Shown: piece after piece, positions 26,780 through 47,087 of the stretch
How the letters are laid out: every line of letters starts with the position of its first letter
How positions within the stretch are numbered: position 1 is the stretch's first letter
From: a phage
DNA length: 64,000 nt
Direction: 5' to 3' (one strand)
Assembly (NCBI GenBank): GCA_014687725.1
Contig: GCA_014687725.1_4094.1
Made by a program: the position numbers and the translations under genes
The notes under the pieces: generated by a model
The model's database searches: none
What the model saw: the letters and a program-made list of their open reading frames with translations, nothing else
Told to the model about the DNA's origin: nothing

Positions 26780-26954
26780 TTAAACACAAGTAGACAGGGG
26801 AAGCTCCTAGTGAACAACCTTTATGTACAGGCGAATTGTTAAAATTCAGCCTGGACAAATGCGATCACTAGGATTCTCCCCAGGCTAAACCCCGTAATCA
26901 TAGGTAGTCATAAGTAATCATATATAAACATTTAAGTAATCATTTATAATCACT

Positions 26955-26983
26955 GTAGTGATCAGTAGTGATCAGTAGTGAGT
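26955..26983. repeat. tandem 10-bp repeat GTAGTGATCA (about 2.8 copies) flanked by TAATCA repeats
   Basis: gtagtgatcagtagtgatcagtagtgagtact; GTAATCA repeated several times in 26890-27130. Confidence 0.5.
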
Positions 26984-27620
26984 ACTAGAGTACAGGAATG
27001 TTCACGTTTAATCAAGAACGTAGCAGTACTGATATGCCACTAAGTAGGCAGAGGAAGTCTGCCGTACTTTGTAGTTTCCAAGCTCCTTTTCCATTTTTCA
27101 AATTACATCAAATGTAATCAAAAGTAATCACGCAATGATTAGTACTGAATTATTACTTTCACCTTAATTTCAATTACCCCTTTACCCTTCGGGGTAAAAT
27201 TCCATTACCCCTTGAGGCTCCAGCAAAAAGTTGGTTAGTACTCCATCCTAAATCTCGATCCTAAAAATTTTGGAGTACCTATGAAATAAAAGTTGGATCT
27301 TCGAAAGTTGAAATTTACGTTGGGACGTTTATGATTTGTGGGATATAATGATGTTTGTAGTCGGGTAGTTCTCAAGAATATCAGTACTGAATGGTGAAAG
27401 AAAGTTATTGACATTATGATTCAGTACTGTATAATGTTCTACATAGAGAGATGAGTTGCTGCGAACAATTCATTTACTCTACCTCCTGTCGTGAGACAGT
27501 ACAGAAAAGATAGTTCCTCCTGTGGTGGTACATCTTTTTGAACCTCATATGAAAATCGTAATAACAGTACTGATATTAACAGAATGGTGTCAGTACTGAT
27601 TTTAATCTAAAGCATTATGC

Positions 27621-27639
27621 CACCAGCTTGTGCTGGTGG
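27621..27639. repeat. perfect inverted repeat CCACCAGC-ttgt-GCTGGTGG (Chi octamer in both orientations)
   Basis: Direct reading; hairpin-capable palindrome containing Chi. Confidence 0.6.
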
Positions 27640-27785
27640 ATTCCCTCTAACAGTATTCAGTACTACATGATGGTCTTCATCCTCCTAGGGTAACATAGTG
27701 AGGGCTATGATGGCAGTACTGAATACTCCCTTTCAAAAGATAGATCTATGGTATAGTACTGACGGATTTTGGGTGTAGTTACCCT

Positions 27786-27945
27786 GGATGGATTTTGGAC
27801 GTAGATATGTCTAGTCCTCCAGAAGTCTGGAAGTAAAGATGGCTATCCATCTAGACGGCTAAACGGCTAGATTTCTGGATGGCTGGATGGCTAGACGTTT
27901 GGACGGCTAGATGGTTACACGTCTGGAAGTATAGACGGCTAAATC
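27786..27945. repeat. iteron-like cluster of short direct repeats (GACGGCTARA, GGATGGCT, TCTGGAAGTA) followed by AT-rich tract
   Basis: At least 8 imperfect repeat units in ~150 bp, then aaaattttattttgtttttt. Confidence 0.55.
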
Positions 27946-28685
27946 AAAATTTTATTTTGTTTTTTCCAATAGTTCCCCTACCGCGTGGGGATAGTTTCCC
28001 CGCAGTATCTGGAGTTAGATTTTTCTGAATCTGGAATCATTATCTTATAAACTGGGGGCAATGTCAACGGCCTGGACGGATATTTTTAAAAATTTTTTCA
28101 GTACTGAATTTTGGGCGTAACTATGCACCCGGTGGGCTTGAGTCTTTCTCGACTTGATGGAACTATTATACAGTACTGGAAAAATAAAGCAATACCCTGG
28201 AAGCAAAAAAGTTTTAATTAATTTGCTTGCTATCCTGGGCCGGACTATGGTACTATATTTCAGTACTGAGAAAGTGCTTTTACCTGCTAGGGTGCGGGAG
28301 TGTATCCTTTTTAAATTTACTGAATTTTGGGCGTAGTTCCGCACCCTGTGGGTTAGTGCCTTGTGTCCGGCTTATGTAGTAATTATACGCTTTTTCAGGA
28401 TCAAGTCAATACCTAAAAACAAAATAATTGAAAATAATTTAACGCGTTTAAACGGCCCGTAAAGCCCTGGAATGATTGGAATGGTGCAAATGTATAGCTT
28501 AGGTGTATTAATGCGTTAGAATGCGTCTGAGGCCGTTTTATGGGGTGTAGTAGTGATTTGGTTGATTCAGTACTGAATGATAGTACTACTATATAGAAAG
28601 ATAGTTCCCCTGGATGGTTGCAGTACTGAAAGATAGTTCCCCTATATAGAAAGAAAACTATTTTAAAAGTATTTGTAGAAAGTAC

Positions 28686-28713
28686 TTGCAAAGTATTGGG
28701 AAAGGTGTAGAAT
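28686..28713 (+). promoter_or_regulatory. early-type sigma70-like promoter (type 1)
   Basis: AGTACTTGCAA -35, 16-nt spacer, TAGAAT -10, then gTTTTACATcgag and 5' hairpin; this architecture recurs >20 times in 28.7-47 kb. Confidence 0.5.
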
Positions 28714-28770
28714 GTTTTACATCGAGACGGGGGATACGCTCCCGACTCACTTTTAAAAGAGATTAAAACG

Positions 28771-29133
28771 ATGGCGACTCAAATCAATACTATCATGCTT
28801 AACCTGGTTTCTTTCCGTGAAGAGATGAAAGATCTTCCCGCTGAGACTGTACGGATTCACATTGCAGCTTATCGGGAATTGATTGCAATGCTGCCGCTTA
28901 AGCGTGAACAGTACGCCGCTACTGCAATGCTGGACGCAATGATACATAAGATGATCCAGACTGATTTAACGATGGCTTATCAGTACATGGGCGAAATGTT
29001 TGCAGTGTATAGCAAGCCAGTACCAGGAATGGAAAGTACAGAAGTATTACACGGCTTAAACTTAAAACAAGATGCATGGGATAATATGCCTCGTTTCCTG
29101 GTATGGGCTGATAGTGGAAAGATTTACGAATAA
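28771..29133 (+). CDS. hypothetical early protein
   Basis: Own promoter and leader hairpin; ATG start. Confidence 0.6.
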   Translation: MATQINTIMLNLVSFREEMKDLPAETVRIHIAAYRELIAMLPLKREQYAATAMLDAMIHKMIQTDLTMAYQYMGEMFAVYSKPVPGMESTEVLHGLNLKQDAWDNMPRFLVWADSGKIYE

Positions 29134-29147
29134 GTTTTTAAAAGTAC

Positions 29148-29175
29148 TTGCAAAGTAAGTTTAAAGGCGTATAAT
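29148..29175 (+). promoter_or_regulatory. early-type promoter (type 1)
   Basis: TTGCAA, 16 nt, TATAAT. Confidence 0.5.
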
Positions 29176-29187
29176 ACTTTACATCAG

Positions 29188-29207
29188 GTGGGGAATAGTT
29201 CCCCACT
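29188..29207 (+). promoter_or_regulatory. conserved 5'-UTR stem-loop (example copy)
   Basis: GTGGGGA-atagt-TCCCCAC between -10 box and SD. Confidence 0.5.
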
Positions 29208-29226
29208 ATATAAGAGGATTAAAAAA

Positions 29227-29466
29227 ATGGCTAAATCAAAAATGTTCTTAGGTCACAAAAACAAAACTCAATGGAATGTAAGCCTTTGGATTAATAACGA
29301 CGAATCATTATACCGGTTGGCCCAGGACTTTATTGCCGCTAACACTAATCGTAATGATGCGGCCCGTCATATGATGCTATTTTTAGAACAGACTGGACAA
29401 GATAAAACACCGGACGGCTTTAAGTATAGCACTACTGCGATCCGTGCGGCGATGGTTGGAATGTAA
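29227..29466 (+). CDS. hypothetical early protein
   Basis: Track ORF starts at GTG inside the leader hairpin; ATG at 29227 follows AAGAGGA. Confidence 0.55.
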   Translation: MAKSKMFLGHKNKTQWNVSLWINNDESLYRLAQDFIAANTNRNDAARHMMLFLEQTGQDKTPDGFKYSTTAIRAAMVGM

Positions 29467-29548
29467 GAGAATAGATTAAAAGTACTATTGCACGGTGATA
29501 GTACTTTATAATAGATTTCTTTTATACAACAACGATAGGGGTAACAGC

Positions 29549-29815
29549 ATGAATATTATATACTTTGCAACGCGTGAACTTGCTCGGATTGCCGCACGCC
29601 AGGACGGGGCGACGTTTAAAGATATGGGCGTACAATCTGAACGTGGTAAACGTTGGGCCGTAGTAAAGCAAAGTACAGCCCGTTCAATTCAGTACTGGCT
29701 ATCTGCTTTAAAGCGTCCTGATAGTGTATCGCGTCGCGTGGTAGAAATAAAGCACGACCGCAAGGGCAACCGCGTTACTGTGTACAGTACTAAAAAGATT
29801 GCAGTACTTGAATAA
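29549..29815 (+). CDS. hypothetical early protein, paralog of 41865-42260
   Basis: Shared YATRE.ARI.AR..GA.FKDMG...RWAV and HDRKGNRVTVYS blocks. Confidence 0.55.
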   Translation: MNIIYFATRELARIAARQDGATFKDMGVQSERGKRWAVVKQSTARSIQYWLSALKRPDSVSRRVVEIKHDRKGNRVTVYSTKKIAVLE

Positions 29816-29901
29816 AAAGTACTTGCAAACTATGTTTAAGGGCGTATAATGTTTTACATCGAGAGCGGGAATAGTTCCCGCCTATAACCAGGAGTAATAA
29901 A

Positions 29902-30132
29902 ATGACCAATATGTATATGACTGAAGTTAAAACCGTAAAAGATACTACCACTAATAAAACTACTTACTTACAGCGGATCTGCGGTGTATGGCAACGTATC
30001 AGCAAATCAAAGTACTTTAAATTAACATCATATGCCAATCGTTCGGATTCATTCAGTACTGAAATAAAAGGTAATAAAGTACACCAATACGGCACTTATT
30101 ATTATTATAGCCTGGAGGCGATTGCAGTATAA
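29902..30132 (+). CDS. hypothetical early protein
   Basis: Promoter + GCGGGAA-tag-TTCCCGC leader hairpin + AGGAG. Confidence 0.55.
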   Translation: MTNMYMTEVKTVKDTTTNKTTYLQRICGVWQRISKSKYFKLTSYANRSDSFSTEIKGNKVHQYGTYYYYSLEAIAV

Positions 30133-30159
30133 GTAGTTTACAAATCTTTACAATTGCCA

Positions 30160-30350
30160 GTATTGACTTATTTTGTCAGTACTGGCATAATGTATTCATT
30201 GGCAGATAAGCCGTAGCCCATAGGGTGCGGGAGTGTATCTATAGAAAAATTAGTTTAGTATAGTTACAATTGTGCACCCGGTGGGTTAGCTGTTGTCATG
30301 GGGTATATTATGCCAGTACTTGATAATGCTGTCAATACTTTTTTTTAATA
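30160..30350 (+). repeat. structured repeat element with own promoter (candidate small RNA)
   Basis: TTGACT, 17 nt, CATAAT, then inverted arms CCCATAGGGTGC ... GCACCCGGTGGG and U-run; arms recur elsewhere. Confidence 0.35.
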
Positions 30351-30559
30351 TTCAGTACTGAAAACTATTTTTAAAAAGTACTTGCAAACTATGTTTAAAG
30401 GCGTATAATGTTTTACATCAGGACGGGGGACGAAATAAGTAACTTCCCGTTAAGTAGCCCAGGAGTAAGGCACACGAAAAACTCCCCTGATAAAATAGTT
30501 TGACAATTGTTTTTAAAAGCGTATAATACTTACATCAACTACTGAATGAGGGTTACAAA

Positions 30560-31171
30560 ATGAAAACTATCACTACTACTACTTTCGTTATGGATTTTTC
30601 TGAATTGAACGCAGAACAACAAACGTCAGCTATCGAACTGGTTCGGGAACGTGAAAAAAACTCAAACGACAATTATTTTTCTGAAAGTGAAATTGAATAC
30701 TATAAAGAAACAGTACTACCGGAATATGGCATTAATGACGCTGAAATACAATTCAGTGGTTTTTGGTCCCAGGGTGACGGTGCATCAATCAGTACTGACC
30801 ACGTTGACGCAGTGAAGTTTTTACGCAAGGTAAGAGCATTAACTAAGTATCGCTCAATCCGTCACCTGCTGAATGAAGATGATTTGGCGATGAGTGTAAA
30901 GCGTTCTCACTCCCACTACTCGCATGAGAATACTGTAAGCGGGTACATTGAATCGGCTTACACTGATTTAACCGCAAAACAAGAAACGTTAGTTAATGAG
31001 CTTGAGGAACTACTCACTGAAACTATTCGTGAATTGTCCCGCAAGTTGTACCGTGATTTAGAGAATGCATATGAGGATCAATTCACTACTGAAAACATTA
31101 CGGCACTGATTGAGGGTAACGAATATCAATTCAATGTTATTGATGGCGTAGTAGAATCAATCGAATATTAA
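30560..31171 (+). CDS. hypothetical early protein (203 aa)
   Basis: Tandem promoters with structured leader upstream; ATG after GAGGG. Confidence 0.6.
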   Translation: MKTITTTTFVMDFSELNAEQQTSAIELVREREKNSNDNYFSESEIEYYKETVLPEYGINDAEIQFSGFWSQGDGASISTDHVDAVKFLRKVRALTKYRSIRHLLNEDDLAMSVKRSHSHYSHENTVSGYIESAYTDLTAKQETLVNELEELLTETIRELSRKLYRDLENAYEDQFTTENITALIEGNEYQFNVIDGVVESIEY

Positions 31172-31264
31172 TTCAAAAAGTACTTGCAAACTAAGTTTAA
31201 AAGCGTATAATACTTTATATCGAGGCGGGGAATGGTTCCCCGCTCACACTAAAAGGGCAACAAA

Positions 31265-31537
31265 ATGAAAACTTTAAATATCACAACTGCACATCAATTG
31301 GTTCGGGATGCAATGGATCATGTGCAAGATTTCTTCCCTGATGTAAGTGTCGTAACTTATGAAAAAGGTACTTGGACTTATTCAACAATTAATGGTTATG
31401 AGCCTGATTTCGATGATCTGGAAGAAATGGAATTTAATTTTGATCTGCTGAATGATGCCGCCCGTGAAGTTGAAAACGATGTTCAATACATTGATGGTTC
31501 TGTCGCACCTGATGCAGTAAAAGAATTAAAAAACTAA
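31265..31537 (+). CDS. hypothetical acidic protein
   Basis: Promoter + leader hairpin + ATG. Confidence 0.55.
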   Translation: MKTLNITTAHQLVRDAMDHVQDFFPDVSVVTYEKGTWTYSTINGYEPDFDDLEEMEFNFDLLNDAAREVENDVQYIDGSVAPDAVKELKN

Positions 31538-31622
31538 AAAGTACTTGCATTGTAGTTAGATTAACGTATAATACTTTATATCGAGGCGGGGAATGGTTCC
31601 CGCCTTTACTGAGGGTTATCTA

Positions 31623-31883
31623 ATGAGCAAAGTAATTAACTATACAGTGTTAAGCAAGTCATTGTCTATTAGCCAATGTACTGATGGTTATTGGCTTTAT
31701 GATGAAACGCGTGGCATGAATTTAGCTATGCAGGAGAAAACTACTGATGCGGCATATCTTAAAGCACTGGAATACTACCAGAAGCGTTTAAAGGAAGTAG
31801 AAAACGATTATAATAACCTGAAAGCGAAAGTAGATAATTTCGTTGGTCAATTCATCGAGGAAGACGACGACATACAATATTGA
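31623..31883 (+). CDS. hypothetical early protein
   Basis: Start moved to ATG downstream of leader hairpin. Confidence 0.5.
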   Translation: MSKVINYTVLSKSLSISQCTDGYWLYDETRGMNLAMQEKTTDAAYLKALEYYQKRLKEVENDYNNLKAKVDNFVGQFIEEDDDIQY

Positions 31884-31968
31884 AAAAGTACTTGCAATTA
31901 GTTTTTAGTACTGTATAATGGTTTACATAGAGGGGGAAATGGTTCTCCCTGGTAATGAGGAAAATAAA

Positions 31969-32190
31969 ATGGCTAATATCACTACTCTTTCCCAACTGGA
32001 AGCACTGGTTAAATCTATGCGGGAACATGCCGACAAAATCGGCGTACAAGATCCAGCCGTTTGCTTCTGCGACGAATTGAATGATGATACCCTGGTAATA
32101 GCAGAAGTCCAGGACGTTTCTAACTATTCCTCGCGTTACACTGGCGGCGTAGCAAATAAAGGTGACTTCTGTTTATACCTTACAAAATAA
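31969..32190 (+). CDS. hypothetical early protein
   Basis: Start moved to MANITTL after AATGAGGAAAATAAA. Confidence 0.5.
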   Translation: MANITTLSQLEALVKSMREHADKIGVQDPAVCFCDELNDDTLVIAEVQDVSNYSSRYTGGVANKGDFCLYLTK

Positions 32191-32194
32191 CAAC

Positions 32195-32225
32195 GCGGGG
32201 AGATAATAACTCCCCGTTACTTTTT
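32195..32225 (+). terminator. intrinsic terminator
   Basis: GGGGAG-ataataa-CTCCCC then gttaCTTTTT. Confidence 0.5.
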
Positions 32226-32433
32226 CAGTACTGAATCATTTAATAGACGGATCTCGGCACCCGGTGGGTTAGTGACTGTTTCGTCTTGATGTAGTAATTA
32301 TGCCAGTACTGGATGCACTTGTCAACAACTATTTTTCAAATACTTTTTATTAAAATACTTGCAATTAGTTTTTAAACGCGTATAATGTTTTGCATAGGGG
32401 GAGCGGTTCCCCTGGTAACTAAGGAATAAGAAA

Positions 32434-32670
32434 ATGGTCGAACAAATCAAATCAACGTCTTCGAATGTAACGGGAACGGTAGCACACTTTACTAGTGATG
32501 AATCGCGGGGCGTTCCCTATTGTGCTGTACATGTAAACACTGAGGGTAACTACTGGTTTACGGTTTACGGATCATATTCATTTGGACGGCCAGGGCATCA
32601 AAAAATTCTGGATAAAGTACAACCAACGGGTAAAAATATCACTGCCGAAATGTTTTATAAAAAATCATAA
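32434..32670 (+). CDS. hypothetical early protein
   Basis: Promoter + hairpin + AAGGAATAAGAAAATG. Confidence 0.55.
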   Translation: MVEQIKSTSSNVTGTVAHFTSDESRGVPYCAVHVNTEGNYWFTVYGSYSFGRPGHQKILDKVQPTGKNITAEMFYKKS

Positions 32671-32754
32671 AGTACTTGATAATAGTTTTTAGTACTGTAT
32701 AATATTTTACATCGCAAGGGGGAGCGGTTCCCCCTGGTAACTAAGGATAATCAA

Positions 32755-33054
32755 ATGAAAATTGCAATCATCGCCCTGGCTTTATCTGTTTCCTCTTTCG
32801 CTGTTAATGCGTCATTAGATGTAAGTAGTGAAAAATTCATTCAGTGCACTGTTGCAATGACCGATGAAAGTACTGGCGAGATTGTTTTAAAGGATTTAGA
32901 GATCCAGCCAGAAGCATTTAAAAACGGGCCGTTCCATGAAGAAGACGAAAAAGGTAGCACGACAATTTATTACGATGCAAGTACTAAACGCGGTTCGGTC
33001 ACTGTTATGGATACTGAGAAAGTTACATTCACTGGCGTAATTAATTGTTTATAA
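32755..33054 (+). CDS. secreted/periplasmic small protein (predicted signal peptide)
   Basis: MKIAIIALALSVSSFAVNA/SLD: n-h-c regions with AxA-like cleavage site. Confidence 0.6.
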   Translation: MKIAIIALALSVSSFAVNASLDVSSEKFIQCTVAMTDESTGEIVLKDLEIQPEAFKNGPFHEEDEKGSTTIYYDASTKRGSVTVMDTEKVTFTGVINCL

Positions 33055-33071
33055 TATAGTACTGAATCACT

Positions 33072-33100
33072 AGCCCACTATAAGAAGTGGGCTTTTTTTA
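33072..33100 (+). terminator. intrinsic terminator
   Basis: AGCCCACT-ataagaa-GTGGGCT + TTTTTTT. Confidence 0.65.
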
Positions 33101-33292
33101 TTGTAGTATTGTAGTACTGGTATACTTTGAAAATAGTTTTAAAAAAGTAGTTGACATTACCAGGGAAAAGCGTAGAATGTATTACATCAAGACGGGGAAC
33201 ACTAAGTAGACCGCCAGTAAGTCGAATGAAAAACTGGACACGTCAAACAAACTTTGATAAACTAACTTAAACTTTAATTGAGGATTTATAAA

Positions 33293-33775
33293 ATGGCTAA
33301 TGTAAAATCATTTCTGAAAGCACTGATTTCTAACGATACTGTTATTGCTGCTGAATTGCTGGCTGACCTGGATAATGATACCATGAAAGCAGTACGCAAC
33401 AATTTTAACATTGCTTACAGTGAAGCGAAAGAACTACAAGCCAAAAAGGTAGCAGAACTGGAAGAACAGAAAAAAGCCCGTGAAGCAGAACTGCAAGCAA
33501 CAATAGAAAGTATTCAGGCGGCGGTGTCTGGTTTAGATCTGGAAGTGGTTATTGAAATGGCACATAAAGCCCTGGCGGTTAAGTACGGTGAAGATAAGCC
33601 GGAATCTAAGCCTAAAAAATGGATTCAAGAACGTGTTACGGTTGTCCTTGATAACGGGGAAGAACATTTGATTCCTGTACGCGGTAACTGCATTGCGGTA
33701 GTACTGGATGCAATCAAAGAAAGCGGTATGACTCGCGAGGAATGGATCGAAGCTCACCGCAAAGTTGAAGCATAA
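33293..33775 (+). CDS. hypothetical protein (160 aa), coiled-coil-like central region
   Basis: Start moved to MANVKSF after GAGGA; K/E/A-rich heptad-like stretch. Confidence 0.55.
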   Translation: MANVKSFLKALISNDTVIAAELLADLDNDTMKAVRNNFNIAYSEAKELQAKKVAELEEQKKAREAELQATIESIQAAVSGLDLEVVIEMAHKALAVKYGEDKPESKPKKWIQERVTVVLDNGEEHLIPVRGNCIAVVLDAIKESGMTREEWIEAHRKVEA

Positions 33776-33796
33776 CAATTAAAGTACTGAATCACT

Positions 33797-33823
33797 AGCC
33801 CACTGTATAAGTGGGCTTTTTTG
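33797..33823 (+). terminator. intrinsic terminator
   Basis: AGCCCACT-gtata-AGTGGGCT + TTTTTT. Confidence 0.65.
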
Positions 33824-34517: not shown

Positions 34518-34536
34518 AATTATTATCACAGTACTA

Positions 34537-34565
34537 TTGACATAGATTGATAGTACTGGCATAAT
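34537..34565 (+). promoter_or_regulatory. early promoter (type 2, AGTACT-flanked)
   Basis: cAGTACTaTTGACA, 17 nt, gatAGTACTGG-CATAAT; no 5' hairpin; recurs at ~34820, ~37690, ~37970, ~38500, ~45410. Confidence 0.5.
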
Positions 34566-34811: not shown

Positions 34812-34892
34812 AAATATTATCACAGTACTATTGACATAGTTTGATAGTACTGGCATAATAGATTTTATCAAGACAACTAAGAGGAAATTAAA

Positions 34893-36800: not shown

Positions 36801-36810
36801 AAAAAAAAGT

Positions 36811-36840
36811 GGTTGACTTCGGTCAGCCATTTTGCTATTA
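36811..36840 (+). promoter_or_regulatory. terminator/promoter element (copy 4)
   Basis: GGTTGAC-TTCG-GTCAGCC hairpin, TTTT, TATTAT. Confidence 0.5.
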
Positions 36841-39764: not shown

Positions 39765-39848
39765 AAAGTATTTGACAATAGATTATAGTACTGTATAATA
39801 AGTTACATGAAGGGGTGAAATGATTCTCCCCACTAAGAGGAAAGAAAA

Positions 39849-40061: not shown

Positions 40062-40078
40062 TATAAGGAGTACAGCTT

Positions 40079-40171
40079 ATGCAAATGAATCCGATGATTA
40101 TTGTTTTAGCTGTACTTATGATCATTCATGCAATAGTAGAAGTATTAACGCAATCAGGAGTAATAAAATGA
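40079..40171 (+). CDS. very small hydrophobic peptide (30 aa)
   Basis: AAGGAG 8 nt upstream; ATGA-coupled to next ORF; speculative. Confidence 0.3.
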   Translation: MQMNPMIIVLAVLMIIHAIVEVLTQSGVIK

Positions 40172-40341
40172 TTCAAGTAGAATTATCAGTACTGAAAGAT
40201 CTGTTTTATCGGTTAGGTACTACTGGCGAGTATCCTAAAAGTGATACCGCAAAACTTTTTGTATCACTCGACTTATGGCAACGCGAACAATTAGTAATGT
40301 CCTGGCGTAAAGGTAAAGCAGATAGCGAGGTGAAAGCATGA
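40168..40341 (+). CDS. small protein (57 aa)
   Basis: Below track cutoff; ATGA coupling both sides. Confidence 0.4.
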   Translation: MIQVELSVLKDLFYRLGTTGEYPKSDTAKLFVSLDLWQREQLVMSWRKGKADSEVKA

Positions 40342-40487
40342 AAGAATTCTTATTCGAAGTAGTGTTTCAAGGTGTCGGTAGTAACCAACTGATTCGCTCA
40401 AGTGGTTACAATGTTAACCAGGCATGGAATAACATTAAACAAATGTACCCGAACGCTATCACCTATCGCAACCCGAAACAAGTTTAA
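40338..40487 (+). CDS. small protein (49 aa)
   Basis: Below track cutoff; followed by terminator/promoter hairpin. Confidence 0.4.
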   Translation: MKEFLFEVVFQGVGSNQLIRSSGYNVNQAWNNIKQMYPNAITYRNPKQV

Positions 40488-40501
40488 AAATAATTGAAAA
40501 A

Positions 40502-40534
40502 GGGATTGACTCCGGTCAGTCCCTTTGCTATTAT
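40502..40534 (+). promoter_or_regulatory. terminator/promoter element (copy 5)
   Basis: GGGATTGAC-TCCG-GTCAGTCCC, TTTG, TTGACT/17 nt/TATTAT. Confidence 0.55.
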
Positions 40535-40635
40535 ATACGCATAGAAACAAATCAGCCCACAGGGTGCATAAATGTATCTATTGTTTGCTGGTGGCTAGTA
40601 CTATCAAGTACTGAAAACTATTTTTAAAAAAGTAC

Positions 40636-40663
40636 TTGCATTGTACTTAGAATCAAGTATAAT
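40636..40663 (+). promoter_or_regulatory. early promoter P1 of tandem pair
   Basis: TTGCAT, 16 nt, TATAAT; upstream A/T-rich tract and TCAGTACTGA. Confidence 0.5.
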
Positions 40664-40751
40664 GTTTTACATCAGGACGGGGAACGAAACAAGTAACCCC
40701 GTTAAGTAGTCCAGGAGTAAGACATAAGAAAACCTCCCCTGATAAAATAGT

Positions 40752-40779
40752 TTGACAATAGAAAGTAAACGAGTATAAT
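40752..40779 (+). promoter_or_regulatory. early promoter P2 of tandem pair
   Basis: TTGACA, 16 nt, TATAAT; separated from P1 by a ~60-nt structured leader, duplicated at 30360-30560. Confidence 0.5.
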
Positions 40780-40812
40780 ACTTACATCAACCACTGATAA
40801 GGAAACATTAAA

Positions 40813-41088
40813 ATGCGGATTCTACTGACAGCTAACGAAATCGAACAAGTACTGACTACTAACCTGGAAGACTGGAAACGTGAAGCAGATATCCAGGCGG
40901 TTCAACGGCTTAACGATGAGTTAACGCCGGATGACTTAAGCAAGATTGTAGATCCTCAATTCTACGAAGATATCCACGACACCGCGTTAAGCGTCGAGGA
41001 TGTACTAGATAAGCACTACATTGATATTGATTTGCAGGTTTACGGTCGTAAAAACTTTATCACTATTCACGACATTTACAATAATTAA
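40813..41088 (+). CDS. hypothetical acidic protein
   Basis: ATG after AAGGAAACATTAAA. Confidence 0.55.
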   Translation: MRILLTANEIEQVLTTNLEDWKREADIQAVQRLNDELTPDDLSKIVDPQFYEDIHDTALSVEDVLDKHYIDIDLQVYGRKNFITIHDIYNN

Positions 41089-41174
41089 GTATTGACAAAG
41101 TATCTTAGTACTGTATAATAGTTTACATCGAGAGGGGGAATGGTTCCCCTCCTAACAAAGAGAGAGAAATAAAA

Positions 41175-41357
41175 ATGGCTAAATGCACTATCTGTAAGAA
41201 AGAAATCGTATTAGTTCCAAGTGCCCGTGAACGTGCCGCTCGGTTCGGTGGCAAACCGTCAGACTATACAAAAATGTTTACTGTCCATGCAGCTTGCCAG
41301 GTAGCAAAACGTTCACAAGAAAGCGTAGAATTAATGCGTAAACTTTCCAAAAAATAA
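41175..41357 (+). CDS. hypothetical small protein
   Basis: Promoter + hairpin + GAGAGAGAAATAAAAATG. Confidence 0.5.
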   Translation: MAKCTICKKEIVLVPSARERAARFGGKPSDYTKMFTVHAACQVAKRSQESVELMRKLSKK

Positions 41358-41445
41358 GTATTGACAAAGTATCTTAGTACTGTATAATAGTTTACATCAA
41401 GTGAGGGGAAACGGTTCCCCTCCTAACAAAGAGAGAGAAATAAAA

Positions 41446-41769
41446 ATGGCTATGATCCTTGCCCAGAAAGTAGAACTGAAAATTGTAACCTCCTTTGACA
41501 TTAAAGTTAATCGGTGGACTGATTCACACGGCAATACTTACCACTCTTGCTACGTGTCTGCGTTAATTGGTGATCGTTGGGAAGACCTGGGACATGAAAC
41601 CTTTACATACGGTTACGGCACACAAGGCGAATACACGGGCTTGGAGATCATTAAAGAAACCGTTATAGGTTTCAACCCGAAAGAAACAGTTATTCACCGC
41701 ATCGAGGAAGAGATCAACAAAGAAATAACAGTTCGATACTACGATGTAAAACGTAAGAAAGATATGTAA
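41446..41769 (+). CDS. hypothetical protein, paralog of 34893-35237
   Basis: Start moved to MAMILAQ; duplicated promoter/leader with 41175 gene. Confidence 0.55.
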   Translation: MAMILAQKVELKIVTSFDIKVNRWTDSHGNTYHSCYVSALIGDRWEDLGHETFTYGYGTQGEYTGLEIIKETVIGFNPKETVIHRIEEEINKEITVRYYDVKRKKDM

Positions 41770-41864
41770 TAGAATCCATTTAAAGTACTATTTGACATTG
41801 CCCAGATAGTACTTTATAATAGACTCTAACTTGTAGTACTAACTCAACTAATAGGATGTATACC

Positions 41865-42260
41865 ATGATTACTAAATTCTACGCTACCCGTGAAGCTGCC
41901 CGTATTGTTGCACGCGAGGAAGGAGCAGCATTTAAAGACATGGGCAAAGATGCACCGAAAGGCCAACGCTGGGCCGTACAGTTCAAAGAGATCTCTGATA
42001 TTGTGAATTCACCTGAGCCAGTACTAACAGCAGCAGAACTAAAACGAGCGGATTTACTGGCGTCAATACTTGATGCACAAGATGAGTTTATCGCTGATTC
42101 TGATATCAAAGTACAGACAAACCATACCGCTTGGACTCACGCGGATCACCTGGCAAACCTGAAGCGTCCAAGTGAACTGGTACGCAACCAGAAAGAGATC
42201 CGACACGACCGTAAGGGTAATCGTGTAACAGTATACAGTAAACGCCGCCAGGTTATCTAA
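41865..42260 (+). CDS. hypothetical protein, paralog of 29549-29815
   Basis: Start moved to second ATG (AGGA upstream). Confidence 0.55.
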   Translation: MITKFYATREAARIVAREEGAAFKDMGKDAPKGQRWAVQFKEISDIVNSPEPVLTAAELKRADLLASILDAQDEFIADSDIKVQTNHTAWTHADHLANLKRPSELVRNQKEIRHDRKGNRVTVYSKRRQVI

Positions 42261-42282
42261 TAACTTGCAGTACTAACAACAC

Positions 42283-42307
42283 GGCGGGATCAGTTCCCGC
42301 CTTTTTT
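42283..42307 (+). terminator. intrinsic terminator
   Basis: GGCGGGA-tcagt-TCCCGCC + TTTTTT. Confidence 0.65.
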
Positions 42308-42321
42308 ATAGGACAAACAAA

Positions 42322-42576
42322 ATGATTAAGGTTCAACTATATAAAGATAATATCTTGCGGGTACACTATAAAGCCCCTCAGAGAATCATCACAAAGGCCG
42401 TACAGCTTGCTAATGAGTTTATTAATGGTAACCTATTACCAAGGAAGTTAAGCAACGGAAAACTGCGTGTAATCGATGTAGACACTAACAACAGAATAGT
42501 AATTGAGAACACAGGAAAGATAAACCTATATGAACACCAACAATATAATAAGAAAATAAAACTAATATCACGTTGA
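42322..42576 (+). CDS. hypothetical protein
   Basis: ATG after GGACAAACAAA. Confidence 0.5.
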   Translation: MIKVQLYKDNILRVHYKAPQRIITKAVQLANEFINGNLLPRKLSNGKLRVIDVDTNNRIVIENTGKINLYEHQQYNKKIKLISR

Positions 42577-42629
42577 CAGTACTCAATTGTTTTAGTACTA
42601 TGTACATATACCAACACGGGAGAAACAAA

Positions 42630-42848
42630 ATGAAATTATCTAAAATCGAAAAGAAAACTATTGATGAAGCAGTTAAGCACGGTTATACCTTTCGTAATGA
42701 TTCACATTTTACCAATTTTCAACAAGGGTATCGTACTATTAAAAAACTCATTGACAAAGGTTTATTAGTTGAAGTCAATAACGGCAATGGTATTGAGTAT
42801 CAACCAACACAAGACGCATTTTATTTTAAGAAATATAATATTATCTAA
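42630..42848 (+). CDS. hypothetical protein, tandem duplicate pair member
   Basis: Promoter TTGACA/17/TACTAT and leader duplicated at 42849-42905. Confidence 0.5.
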   Translation: MKLSKIEKKTIDEAVKHGYTFRNDSHFTNFQQGYRTIKKLIDKGLLVEVNNGNGIEYQPTQDAFYFKKYNII

Positions 42849-42905
42849 TTGACAGTACTCAAATGTTTTAGTACTATATGTACATACCAACACGGGGAAA
42901 ACAAA

Positions 42906-43148
42906 ATGATTACTTTAGAAAAACGTATCAAAGAAACTACATCGCTGGTGGAACTGTTAACAGTACTGAAATGCCGTACTACTCGGTTTAGTACACCGGA
43001 CTTTATTAATATGGTTGATGTTAACGGTCGTTATCGCATTGCAGTAGAACAAGGAACAGCGAAAGTATTCAGTACTAAAAACACTAAGGAAGTGATTCAT
43101 GCTGTAAGTGTTAAAAAAGTAGTTGCCATTGATAGTAAAGTACTGTAA
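42906..43148 (+). CDS. hypothetical protein, tandem duplicate pair member
   Basis: Same promoter/leader as previous gene. Confidence 0.5.
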   Translation: MITLEKRIKETTSLVELLTVLKCRTTRFSTPDFINMVDVNGRYRIAVEQGTAKVFSTKNTKEVIHAVSVKKVVAIDSKVL

Positions 43149-43179
43149 GATAGTTTCATTAACTCAAGGAGAACATGCA

Positions 43180-43764
43180 ATGCGTAATTATACTAAATTC
43201 ATCCGTACCCTGTCAGAAATGGAAACCAACAAAGAGATCCTTTCAGCTTGTCGGTTAGCTGGTCTGGAGATCATCGGTGCGGGTTCTTCCCGTATTGTAT
43301 TCGCTTTAAATGATCGGTTAGTGATCAAGGTCGCGAATTGTGATGCGGGTGTAGAACAAAATGAAACTGAATGTAAGGTATGGAATTTTTTAGATTATGA
43401 CCGCCCTCAATTGAAACAGTACTTTGCAAAGGTGCATATGCATTTATGCGATCCTGATAATATGTTTATCGTTATGGATCGGTTGAGTACTGCAAGTAAA
43501 GGCAGTGTAAAGCACGTAAACGCGTGCAATGAATTAAAGTACAATATTAAACGTAATGCCATTGAACGCCAGCACCGCTTTGCTGATGCACTACAACACG
43601 TTGATGATACATTATCAACACTAACGATAAGAGATATCAGAAAACAGAATATCGGCCAGGATCGTAATGGCCTTATTAAAGTACTTGATTACGGTTTAAC
43701 CCGCAATATCTGGAATCAGTACTATAAAAAGCGTGATGTAGAAGCAAGTAAGGTAACACGATAA
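43180..43764 (+). CDS. protein-kinase-like protein (atypical Ser/Thr kinase fold)
   Basis: IIGAGSSRIVF (Gly-rich loop), LVIKV (beta3 Lys), RDIRKQNIG (catalytic loop), KVLDYG (DFG-like); AAGGAG SD. Confidence 0.55.
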   Translation: MRNYTKFIRTLSEMETNKEILSACRLAGLEIIGAGSSRIVFALNDRLVIKVANCDAGVEQNETECKVWNFLDYDRPQLKQYFAKVHMHLCDPDNMFIVMDRLSTASKGSVKHVNACNELKYNIKRNAIERQHRFADALQHVDDTLSTLTIRDIRKQNIGQDRNGLIKVLDYGLTRNIWNQYYKKRDVEASKVTR

Positions 43765-43777
43765 AAAAGATTAAAAA

Positions 43778-43812
43778 AGGGATTGACTCCGGTCAGTCCC
43801 TTTGCTATTATA
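43778..43812 (+). promoter_or_regulatory. terminator/promoter element (copy 6)
   Basis: GGGATTGACTCCGGTCAGTCCC + TTTGCTATTAT. Confidence 0.55.
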
Positions 43813-43984
43813 TATTCATTGAGAGATAACTCACTGACCCATAGGGTGCGGAAGTGTATCTATTATATAAGTATTCAGTACTGAAAACTATTTTAAAAAA
43901 GTACTTGCAATGTACTTAGAATCAAGTATAATGTTTTACATAGAGAGGGGGAAATGGTTCTCCCTGGTAATAAGGAATAAAATC

Positions 43985-44206
43985 ATGACTACAATGACTT
44001 GCATTTACGCTTCCAATCTTCTGAATGATGCGGCCTTTAATGTTGATTCAGAATATCAATGTTATCGGGATGAAAATAAAAAAGTTTTTGTAGTTGATAA
44101 TAATGGTTTCCATATTGAATTACAATCCGGTTTCACTGGTGTTGATGGTAAATCAGTGTGGGGCGTACAGGATGATAAAGGCACATATCATTTTAAACGT
44201 AATTAA
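43985..44206 (+). CDS. hypothetical early protein
   Basis: Start moved to MTTMTC downstream of leader hairpin. Confidence 0.5.
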   Translation: MTTMTCIYASNLLNDAAFNVDSEYQCYRDENKKVFVVDNNGFHIELQSGFTGVDGKSVWGVQDDKGTYHFKRN

Positions 44207-44290
44207 GTATTGACAAAGTATATCAGTACTGTATAATAGTTTACATCAAGGGGAGAATAGTTCTCCCCGATACTAAAAGGAAACAAAATT

Positions 44291-44563
44291 ATGTCCAGCT
44301 ACTCCGCTACTATGATCATTAAAGATATGAACGGTAATCCTACTTCTGCTGGTGGATCATTTGGAAACATTAATTTAGATGGTCGGTTATCCATGCAATC
44401 AGCCATCGATGCAGCGAAAGAAGTTTTTAAGAATGAATGTACTGTTAGTAAGCTGGATTATATGGGATTCGCTATCGAGAAAACTAATCGTTTTGTGAAC
44501 TACAAAAATCCACTGATGATTGATACTAACCTGAAAGCTAACGAAGTGGGGTACTTATTATGA
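44291..44563 (+). CDS. hypothetical early protein
   Basis: Promoter + hairpin + AAAGGAAACAAAATTATG. Confidence 0.55.
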   Translation: MSSYSATMIIKDMNGNPTSAGGSFGNINLDGRLSMQSAIDAAKEVFKNECTVSKLDYMGFAIEKTNRFVNYKNPLMIDTNLKANEVGYLL

Positions 44564-44751
44564 CAGTAGAAGAAGTTAAAAAAGTACTGGCAGTACTACG
44601 CTATCATAATCATTGCAAGGTGAAGAATGATCCTGATTATGTTGATTCATCCCTGGAGGAAGACACATTAAACGCAATAAGCCATATGCAAACATTAGCA
44701 AAGCGTATGACCGAAAAGAATAGACCGGACTATATCGGAAATAAAATTTAA
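44560..44751 (+). CDS. hypothetical early protein
   Basis: ATGA overlap with previous. Confidence 0.5.
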   Translation: MTVEEVKKVLAVLRYHNHCKVKNDPDYVDSSLEEDTLNAISHMQTLAKRMTEKNRPDYIGNKI

Positions 44752-44837
44752 AAAGTACTTGCATTGTAGTTAGATTAACGTATAATGTTTTACATAGAGC
44801 GGGGGAACTATTCCCCCGCCAGTCCAGGAGATACACC

Positions 44838-45101
44838 ATGAACACTATCGAAATCACTATCAATGCACACGTATACGACAACGTAGTACTGCAAACTACT
44901 ATGACCGCTAATGATACCAGTACTTTGCGGAATACTGTTATTAGTGCCGTATGTGCCGCTATCGGTGATGTCGCCCTGGAAAATGCAGAACACATCAACA
45001 ACGGTTTCACTATGTGCAAACGTGATAACGCAAAACATATCATCGTAGAAGGTTACGGCGGTGTAGAATATAATCTTTATATGAAAAAAGTACTTGCATA
45101 A
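44838..45101 (+). CDS. hypothetical early protein
   Basis: Promoter + GCGGGGGAA-cta-TTCCCCCGC hairpin + AGGAG. Confidence 0.55.
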   Translation: MNTIEITINAHVYDNVVLQTTMTANDTSTLRNTVISAVCAAIGDVALENAEHINNGFTMCKRDNAKHIIVEGYGGVEYNLYMKKVLA

Positions 45102-45168
45102 TAACTAAAACAAAGTATAATGTTTTGCATAGGGGGAGATATCCTCCCCCACTAAAAGGAGTAATAAA

Positions 45169-45393
45169 ATGGCTAACTTTGATGAACTGATGCGGGAAGT
45201 AGCTAACCTGGCAGAAGAGAAGAAATCATTCGATTCTATCTATAACACCGCTCACCGTGATTCAGTACTGGCATGTACTCAGGATCAAAAAGATGAACTA
45301 ATCGCCACATATCATGAAGCATGGAAGTACTACCGCCAATGGGAGAAAGAAGAAAGCGAGTCTACCATCAACGGCATCAATAATCTAATCTAA
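45169..45393 (+). CDS. hypothetical early protein
   Basis: Promoter + hairpin + AAAGGAGTAATAAAATG. Confidence 0.55.
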   Translation: MANFDELMREVANLAEEKKSFDSIYNTAHRDSVLACTQDQKDELIATYHEAWKYYRQWEKEESESTINGINNLI

Positions 45394-45469
45394 AAGTTTT
45401 ATTTCAGTACTATTGACATAGCTTGATAGTACTGATGTAATAACTTTACTAACTACAAGGGGAAACATA

Positions 45470-45727
45470 ATGGAACAGTTCACACAATATCGGGTAAATC
45501 CTCAAGCTATGGCCTACGTAGAAGACCATAAAACGTTACCAGTACTAACACCAATTAAAGGCCATATCTATCGTGCAATGTCATGGAATACGGCCCAGGA
45601 TGGATATACTACCGCTGGCGTGGGTATGTATTGCGGGAATGGTGAATGGTTTGATCCAAATAATCCGGTAGCCATTGACAGTACTGAAAAAATGAAATGG
45701 GCCGACTACATCGAAGATATTTCATAA
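45470..45727 (+). CDS. hypothetical early protein
   Basis: Type-2 promoter; ATG after AAGGGGAAACATA. Confidence 0.55.
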   Translation: MEQFTQYRVNPQAMAYVEDHKTLPVLTPIKGHIYRAMSWNTAQDGYTTAGVGMYCGNGEWFDPNNPVAIDSTEKMKWADYIEDIS

Positions 45728-45816
45728 AACTATTTGACAGTACTAACCAGTAATGTATAATGTTTTACATAGAGCGGGGGAATAGTTCTCCCGCCAATAG
45801 TTTGGAGTAAAACATT

Positions 45817-46017
45817 ATGTCTATCGCTATCGCCCTGGTTGAAGTACTGAAAGAAGCTAAAGCCAACCTTATCGATGTACAGATTAAGGAATTACAAAAT
45901 GGTTTAATCGGCTGTACTTGTACCGCTGGTGGAGCGGCAGACTATCGGGAATTCGAATCACTTGAATCGATGGTCCGTTATCTTACCATGATCGTAGAAG
46001 ATTGGAGAATCATCTAA
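45817..46017 (+). CDS. hypothetical early protein
   Basis: Promoter + hairpin + TGGAGTAAAACATTATG. Confidence 0.5.
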   Translation: MSIAIALVEVLKEAKANLIDVQIKELQNGLIGCTCTAGGAADYREFESLESMVRYLTMIVEDWRII

Positions 46018-46035
46018 CAAAAAAGAATAAAAAAA

Positions 46036-46069
46036 GGGATTGACTCCGGTCAGTCCCTTTGCTATTATA
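46036..46069 (+). promoter_or_regulatory. terminator/promoter element (copy 7)
   Basis: GGGATTGACTCCGGTCAGTCCC + TTTGCTATTAT. Confidence 0.55.
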
Positions 46070-46263
46070 TACGCATAGACAAAAACTAGCCCACTGGGTG
46101 CAGGAGTGTATCTAAAATATATAGTTAATAACGGTGAGTAACTATCTGCTGGTGGGGTGAAAACTATTAATAAAAAAAGTATTGACAAAGTATATCAGTA
46201 CTGCAATAATGTATCTCGTAGGGCGGCAATGGTGCGACGGCCCACAAAGTTAGGAGATTCAAA

Positions 46264-46596
46264 ATGAGTACTTCAATCGCTATCGTTAAAGCTTTCATCC
46301 GTACCAATGTTTCATCTGTATTCATCGACGGTCTGGATCGGGAAGTAGAATACTCAATCATTATCGCACAGACTGCAAACGGTGCTCGGTATATCCTTAA
46401 TGATAGTGAAGCAAATCACTACTACTTCACTAAAGCTACTGGCTTTAAACGCATCGATGCTGACGTAGTATACACTAAGATGAATAAGCTGGTAGACAAG
46501 ATTAACGCGAAAGGTACTATCGATTTACAGTACTGGACCGAAACCGATCCAGAATATGGATCTCACCGCTACCTGAATCCAGGTATTAAAATGTAA
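46264..46596 (+). CDS. hypothetical early protein
   Basis: ATG after TTAGGAGATTCAAA. Confidence 0.55.
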   Translation: MSTSIAIVKAFIRTNVSSVFIDGLDREVEYSIIIAQTANGARYILNDSEANHYYFTKATGFKRIDADVVYTKMNKLVDKINAKGTIDLQYWTETDPEYGSHRYLNPGIKM

Positions 46597-46685
46597 AAAG
46601 TACTTGCATAGTACTTAGAATCAAGTATAATGTTTTACATAGAGAGGGGGAAATGGTTCTCCCTCCTAAATTAAGGAGTTTTATC

Positions 46686-47087
46686 ATGACCTTCTCAATC
46701 AATTCCTTCGCTGACGTTTTAGTACTGGCTCGGACTTTCGGTAAAGATGCACTGGAGTACGCTGTAAGTAATGGTACTATCCAACCGGAACAGTGCCGCA
46801 TCATTGGAAACTGCAAACGTTGGGCGGTATCCAATACTATTGCACTGGAAAACTTCCACGATGGCAACAATGAATATTCTGTTGATGTAGTATTCGAAGC
46901 CGTTGATCTCGGCGGTATCTATAATACTAACCTGAATGATGTGCGTATCGTTCGCACGGGGTTCGGTGCTTATGATGTATCTATTCGTGAAGCTATGAAC
47001 ACCGGATACATTAGCAAGGACTTACTTGCTCACATCATGCAGCTGTGTACGGAACGTAACGAAGCACGCACTATCTTAGGACTGTAA
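46686..47087 (+). CDS. hypothetical early protein
   Basis: Start moved to MTFSINS after AAGGAG. Confidence 0.55.
   Translation: MTFSINSFADVLVLARTFGKDALEYAVSNGTIQPEQCRIIGNCKRWAVSNTIALENFHDGNNEYSVDVVFEAVDLGGIYNTNLNDVRIVRTGFGAYDVSIREAMNTGYISKDLLAHIMQLCTERNEARTILGL

Follow-up and report, generated by a model that had tools for sequence, protein, structure and literature searches.

The hexamer AGTACT, which we examined in a 64,000-nucleotide stretch of phage DNA (GenBank assembly GCA_014687725.1, contig GCA_014687725.1_4094.1; the whole stretch is called the window below), is a clade-wide word of the Rak2-like jumbo phages and not a promoter element as such. The window is 89–99% identical to Asteriusvirus jumbo phages of Escherichia coli (121Q, PBECO4, slurp01, G17, Sharanji, and others) and corresponds to ~108–172 kb of phage 121Q, whose genome (348,532 bp) we fully reassembled from eight fetched pieces. 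Our preferred reading, held tentatively, is that AGTACT serves as a self-marking recognition word for a candidate, probably phage-encoded, DNA protein, and that the word would also gate early promoters.

An earlier note on this DNA had reported AGTACT-centred palindromes as over-represented, with dozens of copies at 26,780–47,000. Counts against dinucleotide-preserving shuffles bore out the excess, with 252 AGTACT in the window versus 21.0 ± 4.3 expected (maximum 35). AGTACT was the sole enriched 6-bp palindrome in the window (11.7x), while CAGCTG, ACCGGT, TCTAGA, and AAGCTT were avoided; restriction-site avoidance, recognized by under-representation, does not describe this word. "Dozens" was right for the core hexamer but not for the 10-bp palindrome TCAGTACTGA, which has 13 copies (0.07 expected), 11 of them within 26,780–47,000. 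Among related forms, CAGTACTG occurs 50 times (0.7 expected), and the 12-bp palindrome TTCAGTACTGAA has six exact copies and 20 at one mismatch or fewer, versus 0.29 expected. Nor is the excess special to the region first singled out. According to gene models from a simple open reading frame (ORF) caller of our own, 26,780–47,000 holds 130 sites, 50 coding and 80 non-coding, versus ~7 expected from base composition, but the layer of sites extends over positions 1–64,000 (no strand assigned), at 2.8 per kb in coding and 8.1 per kb in non-coding DNA, and continues across 121Q. Over half of the window copies lie within genes, distributed as 58, 32, and 48 among the three frames, and enrichment is found throughout the window except in two segments (47,381–52,759 and 55,198–62,914).

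The same word recurs throughout the clade. The full 348.5 kb of 121Q carries 903 AGTACT; over 331 kb, 847 were counted versus 112 expected (~7.6x), and among 10-kb bins the minimum was 11 (3.4 expected) and the maximum 65, in the terminal repeat. Enrichment was 7.2x in RaK2, 10.2x in CBB (with 4–7.6 sites per kb in its terminal repeat), and 5.1x both in Salmonella phage Munch and in a 366-kb contig of an uncultivated relative, and it thus spans every Rak2-like genus sampled (Asteriusvirus, RaK2, CBB, Munch), at 5–10x. PA5oct-like relatives (TerL identity 43–45%) showed no enrichment of AGTACT. Two uncultivated PA5oct-like contigs, L011 and L017, both had a ~5-fold excess of CAGCTG, and L017 had one of TGGCCA too, which could reflect codon bias (Gln-Leu) or lineage-specific words. 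Within 36 kb of the unrelated coliphage BME3 (Justusliebigvirus), AGTACT was absent (12 expected); megablast suggests that the phage group of BME3 has a part of its early-region DNA in common with Asteriusvirus. In 100 kb sampled from E. coli K-12, there were 6 copies versus 23 expected (0.26x), which makes the word ~45–65x denser in phage than in this sample, or one site per ~250–400 bp versus one per ~17 kb. The searchable literature yielded no account of AGTACT being enriched in these phages, and the passages on promoters, motifs, and methylation in the papers on CBB, RaK2, and Sharanji do not mention the word.

Codon usage, which the earlier note had named as a possible refutation, does not explain these counts. 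When synonymous codons were shuffled within each long gene, preserving both the protein and the codon usage of the gene, the long genes of the window yielded 29.6 ± 4.6 AGTACT versus 83 observed, and three 121Q regions yielded 15–25 versus 49–106 observed, an excess of 3–4.4x (z = 9.8–17.5) over the window and these regions. Late regions with scarcely any intergenic DNA were still enriched 4.6–5.4x. The window and 121Q are 92% identical, and 166 of the 189 AGTACT that align between them were intact (88%), compared with 64–77% for control hexamers. Across genera, we aligned 44 pairs of orthologous genes around the terminase by codon, comparing 121Q with Munch, the 366-kb contig, and RaK2 (~69% nucleotide identity). 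AGTACT stood in the same column in 14 of 32, 7 of 21, and 9 of 17 cases, respectively, versus ~0.05 by chance, and where the spanning amino acids were identical, the word was kept in 13 of 14, 7 of 9, and 9 of 12 cases (29/35, or 83%), versus 31–36% for all hexamers. Synonymous positions within AGTACT are thus conserved between genera, and these alignments indicate that purifying selection holds the sites. There is site turnover too, with more than half of the AGTACT sites not common to both genera compared. The shuffles and the cross-genus synonymous conservation support the signal as one carried at the DNA level, and a codon, dipeptide, or cassette-copy artefact was rejected on the same evidence. 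One-mismatch neighbours were not depleted (AGTATT/AATACT 1.28x; TGTACT/AGTACA 2.4x), which argues against repair-driven conversion bias of the very short patch (VSP) type, and this candidate was also rejected.

The anatomy of the site points to a protein that binds DNA. In folded half-sites, C occupied −1 in ~45% of cases versus 17% in the background, and G, the rarest base there, in just 6–9%; weaker preferences were found for T at −2 to −4 and for A at −8/−9. This flank pattern was alike in late, nearly all-coding regions and in other genera. The two flanks behaved independently, the 50 copies of CAGTACTG comparing with 51 expected (114 × 113 / 252), and a GTAC enrichment of 3.1x combined with independent 5′ A and 3′ T preferences predicted 214 AGTACT, compared with the 252 present. 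The best site consensus was TTCAGTACTGAA. Symmetric and additive half-site preferences over a ~20-bp footprint are the trace that a DNA-binding protein would be expected to leave in sequence, and are unlike the trace of a restriction-type enzyme or an RNA signal.

The region at 26,780–47,000, judged from the records of relatives, is the terminal repeat and the early-gene region of the genome. The first base of the linear fEgEco12 phage record falls at 27,043 of the window and its last base at 47,517; because the record carries this stretch at both record ends, the window likely contains the equivalent of a direct terminal repeat of ~20.5 kb (27,043–47,517, + strand). The CBB record annotates a 22,456-bp terminal "redundant repeat" that is similarly organised, with small genes and gaps. 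The placement comes from these relatives' records (fEgEco12, CBB). The repeat is the peak of AGTACT density in the window (~130 sites). It is laid out as small genes with promoter-plus-hairpin cassettes in between.

A promoter scan of the + strand at 27.1–47.05 kb identified 40 strong sigma70-like promoters, and in 28 of them one or more AGTACT lie within −52 to −2. By its first A, the word is placed at −39 in nine promoters, at −42/−43 in four, at −29/−30 in four, at −19/−20 in 16, and at −14 in two. The main registers (−39, −29/−30, and −19/−20) are spaced 10 bp apart and therefore lie on the same helix face; at −39 the word takes the form AGTAC-TTGCAA, at −29/−30 it overlaps TTGACA, and at −19/−20 it reads AGTACTG-TATAAT or AGTACTGg-CATAAT. 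Both architectures described in the earlier note were confirmed, with AGTAC-TTGCAA, AGTACTaTTGACA...AGTACTGgCATAAT, and AGTACTGTATAAT all found. In type-1 promoters, exemplified at 29,143–29,175 (+), AGTACT (29,143–29,148) abuts a TTGCAA −35 hexamer, from which a 16-nt spacer leads to TATAAT; the first A is at −39, as in all nine promoters of this register. Type-2 promoters, at 34,530–34,565 (+), again at 34,824 and 37,684, and as a variant at 45,406, read AGTACT-a-TTGACA, N9, AGTACTGg-CATAAT, with sites at −42 and −20; the second AGTACT provides the TG of an extended −10, which takes the canonical TGn form in the CATAAT class only. A spacer type at 41,092–41,119 (+) reads TTGACA, N9, AGTACTG-TATAAT, with its site at −19, and an overlap type at 42,573–42,601 (+), again at 42,849, consists of TTGACAGTACT, with a site overlapping the −35, followed by AGTACT overlapping a −10-like TACTAT. 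Exact copies of the full 12-bp palindrome TTCAGTACTGAA, located by word search at 28,097–28,108 (no strand assigned), 28,566, 30,052, 30,351, 32,224, and 43,874, are concentrated in the left part of the terminal repeat, some of them ~23 bp upstream of type-1 promoters.

The claim that the word is tied to promoter architecture therefore stands for the early region (28/40) but not genome-wide, where most copies lie in genes and favour neither gene starts nor gene ends. Outside the early region, AGTACT density was flat across gene starts and stops, and the 300–310 kb bin of 121Q, mostly filled by the 9,972-bp structural gene 582, held 17 copies. The promoter link is a local layer over a genome-wide one. 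The several registers and the 12 of 40 promoters lacking the word indicate that AGTACT is not itself a sigma70 element; roles as a UP, −35, or extended −10 element were rejected on the five registers, on these 12 promoters, and on the location of most sites outside promoters.

The two segments without any AGTACT, 47,381–52,759 (5.4 kb) and 55,198–62,914 (7.7 kb), are strand-polar. The second carries 40 AGTACA on the + strand (14.6x) with 0 TGTACT and 0 AGTACT. These copies, some of them tandem (AGTACAGTACAG), occur in all three frames and with varied flanks, and C is once more common at −1. Of the 40 positions, 32 also have AGTACA at the orthologous site of 121Q, and none has AGTACT there; in the relative ph0011 (74% identity at the array) the + strand has 27 copies and the − strand 0, alongside 5 AGTACT. 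Since it is kept in 121Q and ph0011, the array is real and selected rather than a miscall, and with these independent records in agreement, a sequencing artefact (miscalls at a modified motif near genome ends) was rejected. The array locus is unique within 121Q and its DNA matches Asteriusvirus records only, whereas CBB has no such array after its terminal repeat. A horizontal origin of the AGTACT-free segments was rejected because they match Asteriusvirus records only. The first segment (47,381–52,759, no strand assigned), just after the terminal repeat, is a mirror of the array: it has no top-strand AGTAC (~6 expected from composition), and all 11 of its 11 GTAC are TGTACT. Most of these stand at a Val-Leu codon pair conserved in paralogous small genes and are therefore not independent. 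Because both segments have their genes on the + strand, transcription does not account for the polarity. A replication origin between the two segments was rejected, as the interval is ordinary coding sequence of a paralog family. Across 121Q, non-palindromic half-sites had no consistent polarity except at 155–170 kb. The simplest reading of the array locus is that one half-site orientation is wanted there and the other excluded, which suggests that the functional unit may be an AGTAC(A/T) half-site on one strand and the palindrome its two-strand form.

If AGTACT is a recognition word, its reader would recognise a half-site, (C)AGTAC(A/T), on one strand, and AGTACT would put a half-site on both strands at one spot. 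The word could then be the binding or loading site of a putative sequence-specific DNA protein, probably encoded by the phage. Because the word is far denser in phage than in host DNA, such a protein would gather on the phage genome and in effect mark it as self. Sites at early promoters have their centres at about −36.5, −26.5, and −16.5, positions at which a bound protein would lie over contacts of RNA polymerase; the factor may in this way gate early transcription, most likely by shutting it off as the factor accumulates. A broader proposal, which we hold to be rather doubtful, is that Rak2-like phages, as T4 relatives lacking hydroxymethylcytosine, mark their DNA as self by a sequence word and not by base modification. 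A dedicated phage protein would read ~900 AGTAC(A/T) strand by strand for transcription control, protection, or processing, with the palindrome as a two-way signal and the 7.7-kb array as a one-way stretch.

Several results weigh against a DNA-binding reader of this kind. The word is missing from 12 of the 40 early promoters, often with a one-base variant in its place, and it is entirely missing from the two strand-polar segments. The 10-bp phasing rests on perhaps four or five independent architectures, because the promoters belong to few duplicated cassette families. Outside the early region, AGTACT spacing is barely more even than random (coefficient of variation 0.8). The 40:0 asymmetric array is not explained by a twofold-symmetric dimer and would fit a DNA-tracking protein or a second reader better. 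Pfam and PHROGs scans of 133 window ORFs and selected 121Q genes detected no DNA-binding domain, helix-turn-helix or other; the nine terminal-repeat proteins common with CBB carry no DNA-binding Pfam domain, and the three inspected by eye were not DNA-binding-like.

The earlier note had proposed either a host or a phage factor recognising AGTACT, and these two options fared differently. The SlmA-binding site, GTGAGTACTCAC, the one E. coli site known to us that has the core AGTACT, has its central hexamer in common with the phage word. The phage consensus is TTCAGTACTGAA instead, the flanking G of SlmA sites is the least used base at −1 (6–9%), and the window has 2 matches to GTGAGTACTCAC at two mismatches or fewer versus 1.9 expected. 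SlmA was rejected on these grounds, and a host factor is unlikely; a phage-encoded factor stays the best reading, although the protein was not found. Phd/YefM-family proteins bind GTAC-core palindromes, and an early protein of 84 aa (42,322–42,576), which the CBB terminal repeat encodes in conserved form, contains a toxin domain of the ParE-like kind (Pfam E = 6e-11). A Phd/YefM-type partner of this toxin was considered as the reader and set aside, as no such partner was detected; no antitoxin-like neighbour of the ParE-like protein was recognised.

The one-strand array is best accounted for by a different proposal, namely that AGTAC(A/T) is a polar signal for an enzyme travelling on phage DNA: a Chi-like nuclease/helicase signal, a translocase signal like the FtsK-orienting polar sequences (KOPS), or a signal for an enzyme acting at head-on collisions. 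The palindrome would work both ways, and the arrays beside the terminal repeat would impose one direction. The 40:0 AGTACA polarity would be compatible with recognition by a translocating enzyme, as would the strict absence of both the palindrome and the opposite orientation, conserved at 74–93% identity, and the adjoining 5.4 kb with 0 top-strand half-sites. Array half-site density on one strand (5.2 per kb) is similar to the two-strand total elsewhere, and late-region spacing is slightly regular, without long gaps. Chi is enriched and co-oriented in the terminal repeat, suggesting that end-processing enzymes matter to the phage, and the genome encodes SbcCD-like, Cas4-like, and UvsW/Dda-like enzymes. 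We nevertheless consider this proposal fairly unlikely as an account of AGTACT. Chi and KOPS are asymmetric words with polarity over large domains, whereas AGTACT is palindromic over >95% of the genome and has no large-scale polarity; the polar array is limited to Asteriusvirus and absent from CBB, and therefore cannot explain a clade-wide word. Flank preferences extending to ±9 bp and fixed promoter registers fit static binding better, and we know of no translocase that reads a 5–6-nt palindrome.

A link to DNA modification, also raised in the earlier note, found little support. AGTACT would here be the target of methylation or a bulkier phage modification, and modified sites would shield or label the phage genome and exert epigenetic control over promoters. 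In favour of this, the clade has two conserved DNA methyltransferases. The word is the target of a type II restriction enzyme (ScaI), and this ScaI-type site is scarce in K-12 (0.26x) and BME3 (0 versus 12 expected), so that ~900 unprotected sites would look risky. Cyanobacterial hyper-abundant palindromes, as Elhai is said to have described in 2015, accompany matching methyltransferases. One of the two enzymes, the product of 121Q gene 91, is a C5 DNA methyltransferase of 286 aa encoded outside the window (L004:12483-13343) and found from Asteriusvirus to RaK2 at 63–100% identity. Among solved structures, the catalytic domains of mammalian DNMT3A/B/C are nearest to it along its full length, a likeness that suggests a short-motif (CpG-type) specificity. 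The RaK2 paper (PMC3622015) reports the phage DNA as resistant to methylation-sensitive restriction enzymes and mentions CpG methylation on the basis of bisulfite results that it does not show. No CpG occurs in AGTACT. The other methyltransferase of the clade is of the phage Dam family (PF05869), and enzymes of this family are usually GATC-specific. Judging by these predicted specificities, neither enzyme is expected to target AGTACT, and no third DNA methyltransferase was found in the 121Q record annotation or in Pfam scans, which included ten neighbours of the Dam gene. The 1.28x of AGTATT/AATACT leaves no deamination or repair signature, and modification alone would explain neither the enrichment, nor the flank preferences, nor the AGTACA array. 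We consider modification a decidedly unlikely basis for the word. As further observations on gene 91, several Asteriusvirus records match residues 78–286 only, so the gene may be truncated or interrupted there, and BME3 encodes a methyltransferase 51% identical to its product.

It is very unlikely that the half-site is instead a preferred start of a T4-type primase on the lagging-strand template, with palindromes serving both fork directions and the array marking one-way forks. Sites are on the top strand rightward of 52.8–55.2 kb and on the bottom strand leftward of it, as for forks leaving that point, one site per ~250–570 bp would be of the order expected of effective priming sites, and the clade has a primase (gp61-like) and a helicase (gp41-like) of its own. 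T4-type primases need a trinucleotide only (GTT/GCT in T4), so priming would call for no AGTACT enrichment. A site on the leading-strand template should be harmless, leaving the strict avoidance of the other orientation unexplained, and the promoter registers are equally unaccounted for; the central interval is ordinary coding sequence without origin-like features, and CBB has no array.

Even less probable is a signal acting in RNA, where AGUACU/AGUACA would be a cleavage or binding site of a phage or host RNA enzyme and the palindrome would cover transcripts of either strand. All 40 array AGTACA are on the sense strand of + strand genes, and half-sites form the stem arms of the hairpins in a cassette of RCC1-like genes. 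The mirror segment, also with + strand genes, bears the opposite orientation, and elsewhere in 121Q either orientation relative to transcription occurs. With >90% of genes on one strand, a palindrome would be unnecessary; the flank preferences are symmetric and many sites lie upstream of promoters. Least probable of all is that the word has no function and is a by-product of codon or dipeptide usage, cassette copying, or mutation bias: duplicated promoter and terminator cassette families do inflate the early-region non-coding count, and the codons AGT, ACT, GTA, and TAC are common (shuffle expectation 25–30 versus ~10–16 from base composition), but long, non-repeated genes keep a 3–4.4-fold excess after synonymous shuffling (z = 10–17), synonymous positions are kept between genera in 83% versus 33%, one-mismatch neighbours have no conversion-bias pattern, and late regions are still at 4.6–5.4x.

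The RCC1-like cassette, a set of propeller genes in which the earlier note had described AGTACT-type terminator stems, lies at 9,493–22,453 on the − strand. It comprises ~10 tandem paralogous RCC1-like beta-propeller genes (~370–396 aa) whose copy number varies among relatives, each with the same terminator-like hairpin behind it and then a near-identical promoter and ribosome-binding unit. We confirmed the GCCAGTAC...GTACTGGC hairpins: GCCAGTAC(N2-5)GTACTGGC followed by a T run occurs in most of the ten intergenic gaps, and by sequence these are putative intrinsic terminators. The intergenic example at 14,306–14,375 (−) consists of the hairpin GCCAGTAC-ag-AGTACTGGC, a T run, and then a promoter. 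AGTACT itself is present in five of the hairpins and in one non-hairpin gap (10,663–11,042), and the hairpin arms are two half-sites drawn apart.

Other features of the terminal repeat and its surroundings were recorded alongside the word. The first 1.6 kb of the repeat (27,043–28,700) has no convincing ORF and carries 17 AGTACT. Short direct repeats lie near the start of the repeat (GATCAGTAGT at ~26,960–26,980, and GGCTAGA/GGATGGCT units at 27,800–27,930), as do a Chi-containing hairpin at 27,620–27,639 and leftward-facing promoters at ~28,409 and ~28,067. This part could hold end-recognition signals or small RNAs; no Rfam families or tRNAs were found in the window, including 27,043–28,700. 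The E. coli Chi sequence GCTGGTGG has 14 copies on both strands (0.5 expected), 11 of them within the terminal repeat. Nine of these 11 are co-oriented on the + strand (27,632, 33,904, 38,207, 39,669, 40,587, 42,944, 44,348, 45,925, and 46,148), and two, at 27,620 and 33,842, are on the opposite strand near the left end of the repeat. The cluster is also present in 121Q, and its orientation would suit the taming of RecBCD entering at genome ends.

Type-2 promoters also occur in leftward orientation (− strand, ~28,040–28,410, 30,200–30,335, and 32,235–32,325) as TTGACA-N17-CATAAT with AGTACTGG in the spacer, followed downstream by a conserved − strand sequence (...CCCACCGGGTGC...) without an ORF; these units may represent small antisense or non-coding RNAs. 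Three identical copies and one variant of a perfect 28-nt hairpin, AAAGGGATTGACTCCGGTCAGTCCCTTT, are also present (36,806–36,833, 40,499–40,526, 43,776–43,803, and 46,033–46,060). The hairpin encloses a TTGACT −35-like hexamer that is followed by TATTAT, giving a promoter-like unit with the −35 buried in the stem. Beyond the repeat, tandem small genes (~60–90 aa) with overlapping stops and starts occupy 47,615–53,971 and probably also 22,556–26,779, and phrog_4148 (PHROGs, function not assigned) matches 25 window ORFs of this family. Left of 52.7 kb the family is without AGTACT, and right of it AGTACT stands at the matching Val-Leu codon pair.

Phages normally purge short palindromes, and a whole clade of 350-kb phages that keeps ~900 copies of one of them points to a protein–DNA system covering the entire genome. 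The reader, once found, could show how jumbo phages without a nucleus-like shell or T4-type base modification discriminate self from host DNA, and how the early transcription burst from the terminal repeat is timed. AGTACT is a simple genomic marker of the clade in metagenomes and a practical handle for ScaI digestion, synonymous recoding, and oligonucleotide pull-downs (duplexes TTCAGTACTGAA, TTCAGTACAGAA, and TTCAGTCCTGAA), while the one-strand AGTACA array amounts to an experiment of nature on the role of orientation.

Several known systems share part of this pattern. The early region resembles the promoter-early-stem-loop cassettes (PeSLs) that Arbiol and colleagues are said to have described in T4-type phages in 2010: the terminal repeat is a string of small ORFs, each with a sigma70-type promoter and a conserved hairpin ahead, and the ~40 promoters (TTGACA/TTGCAA-N16/17-TATAAT) followed by a GGGGA...TCCCC hairpin and a small ORF fit the definition of such cassettes. 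PeSLs are not known to bear AGTACT, and they leave the genome-wide intragenic copies unexplained. In mycobacteriophage L5 (stoperators) and phage SPO1 (TF1 sites), one phage protein binds many sites in its own genome, some of them over early promoters, and silences transcription. Stoperators are asymmetric 13-bp sites that follow the direction of transcription, and TF1 requires a modified base; both kinds of site number in the tens, compared with ~900 AGTACT, for which no repressor is known. Compared with ScaI-type sites and palindrome avoidance in general, the window avoids other 6-bp palindromes, as is usual for phages, and AGTACT is instead 8–12x enriched and conserved.

In kind, the nearest parallels to AGTACT appear to be the highly iterated palindromes and the self words present in excess (Chi, KOPS, and DNA-uptake sequences), and defining features set it apart from each of them. 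Like AGTACT, such self words are over-represented and rarer in foreign DNA, and they separate self from non-self; orientation matters for the phage word at one locus at least. Those words are asymmetric, polar over whole replichores, and have known readers, whereas the phage word is palindromic over >95% of the genome. The highly iterated palindrome HIP1 (GCGATCGC) of cyanobacteria is chromosomal, 8 bp long, and GC-rich, and has a matching methyltransferase. Like HIP1, AGTACT is a short perfect palindrome many-fold over expectation genome-wide (in the window and in 121Q), occurs in coding DNA in all frames and in non-coding DNA, is kept beyond codon and amino-acid constraint, and has no known reader or function. 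It differs in that the two methyltransferases of the clade are, by their predicted specificities, not expected to match AGTACT, and in that the phage word is a 6-bp, AT-rich palindrome of lytic jumbo phages, built into early promoters and accompanied by a strand-polar variant array.

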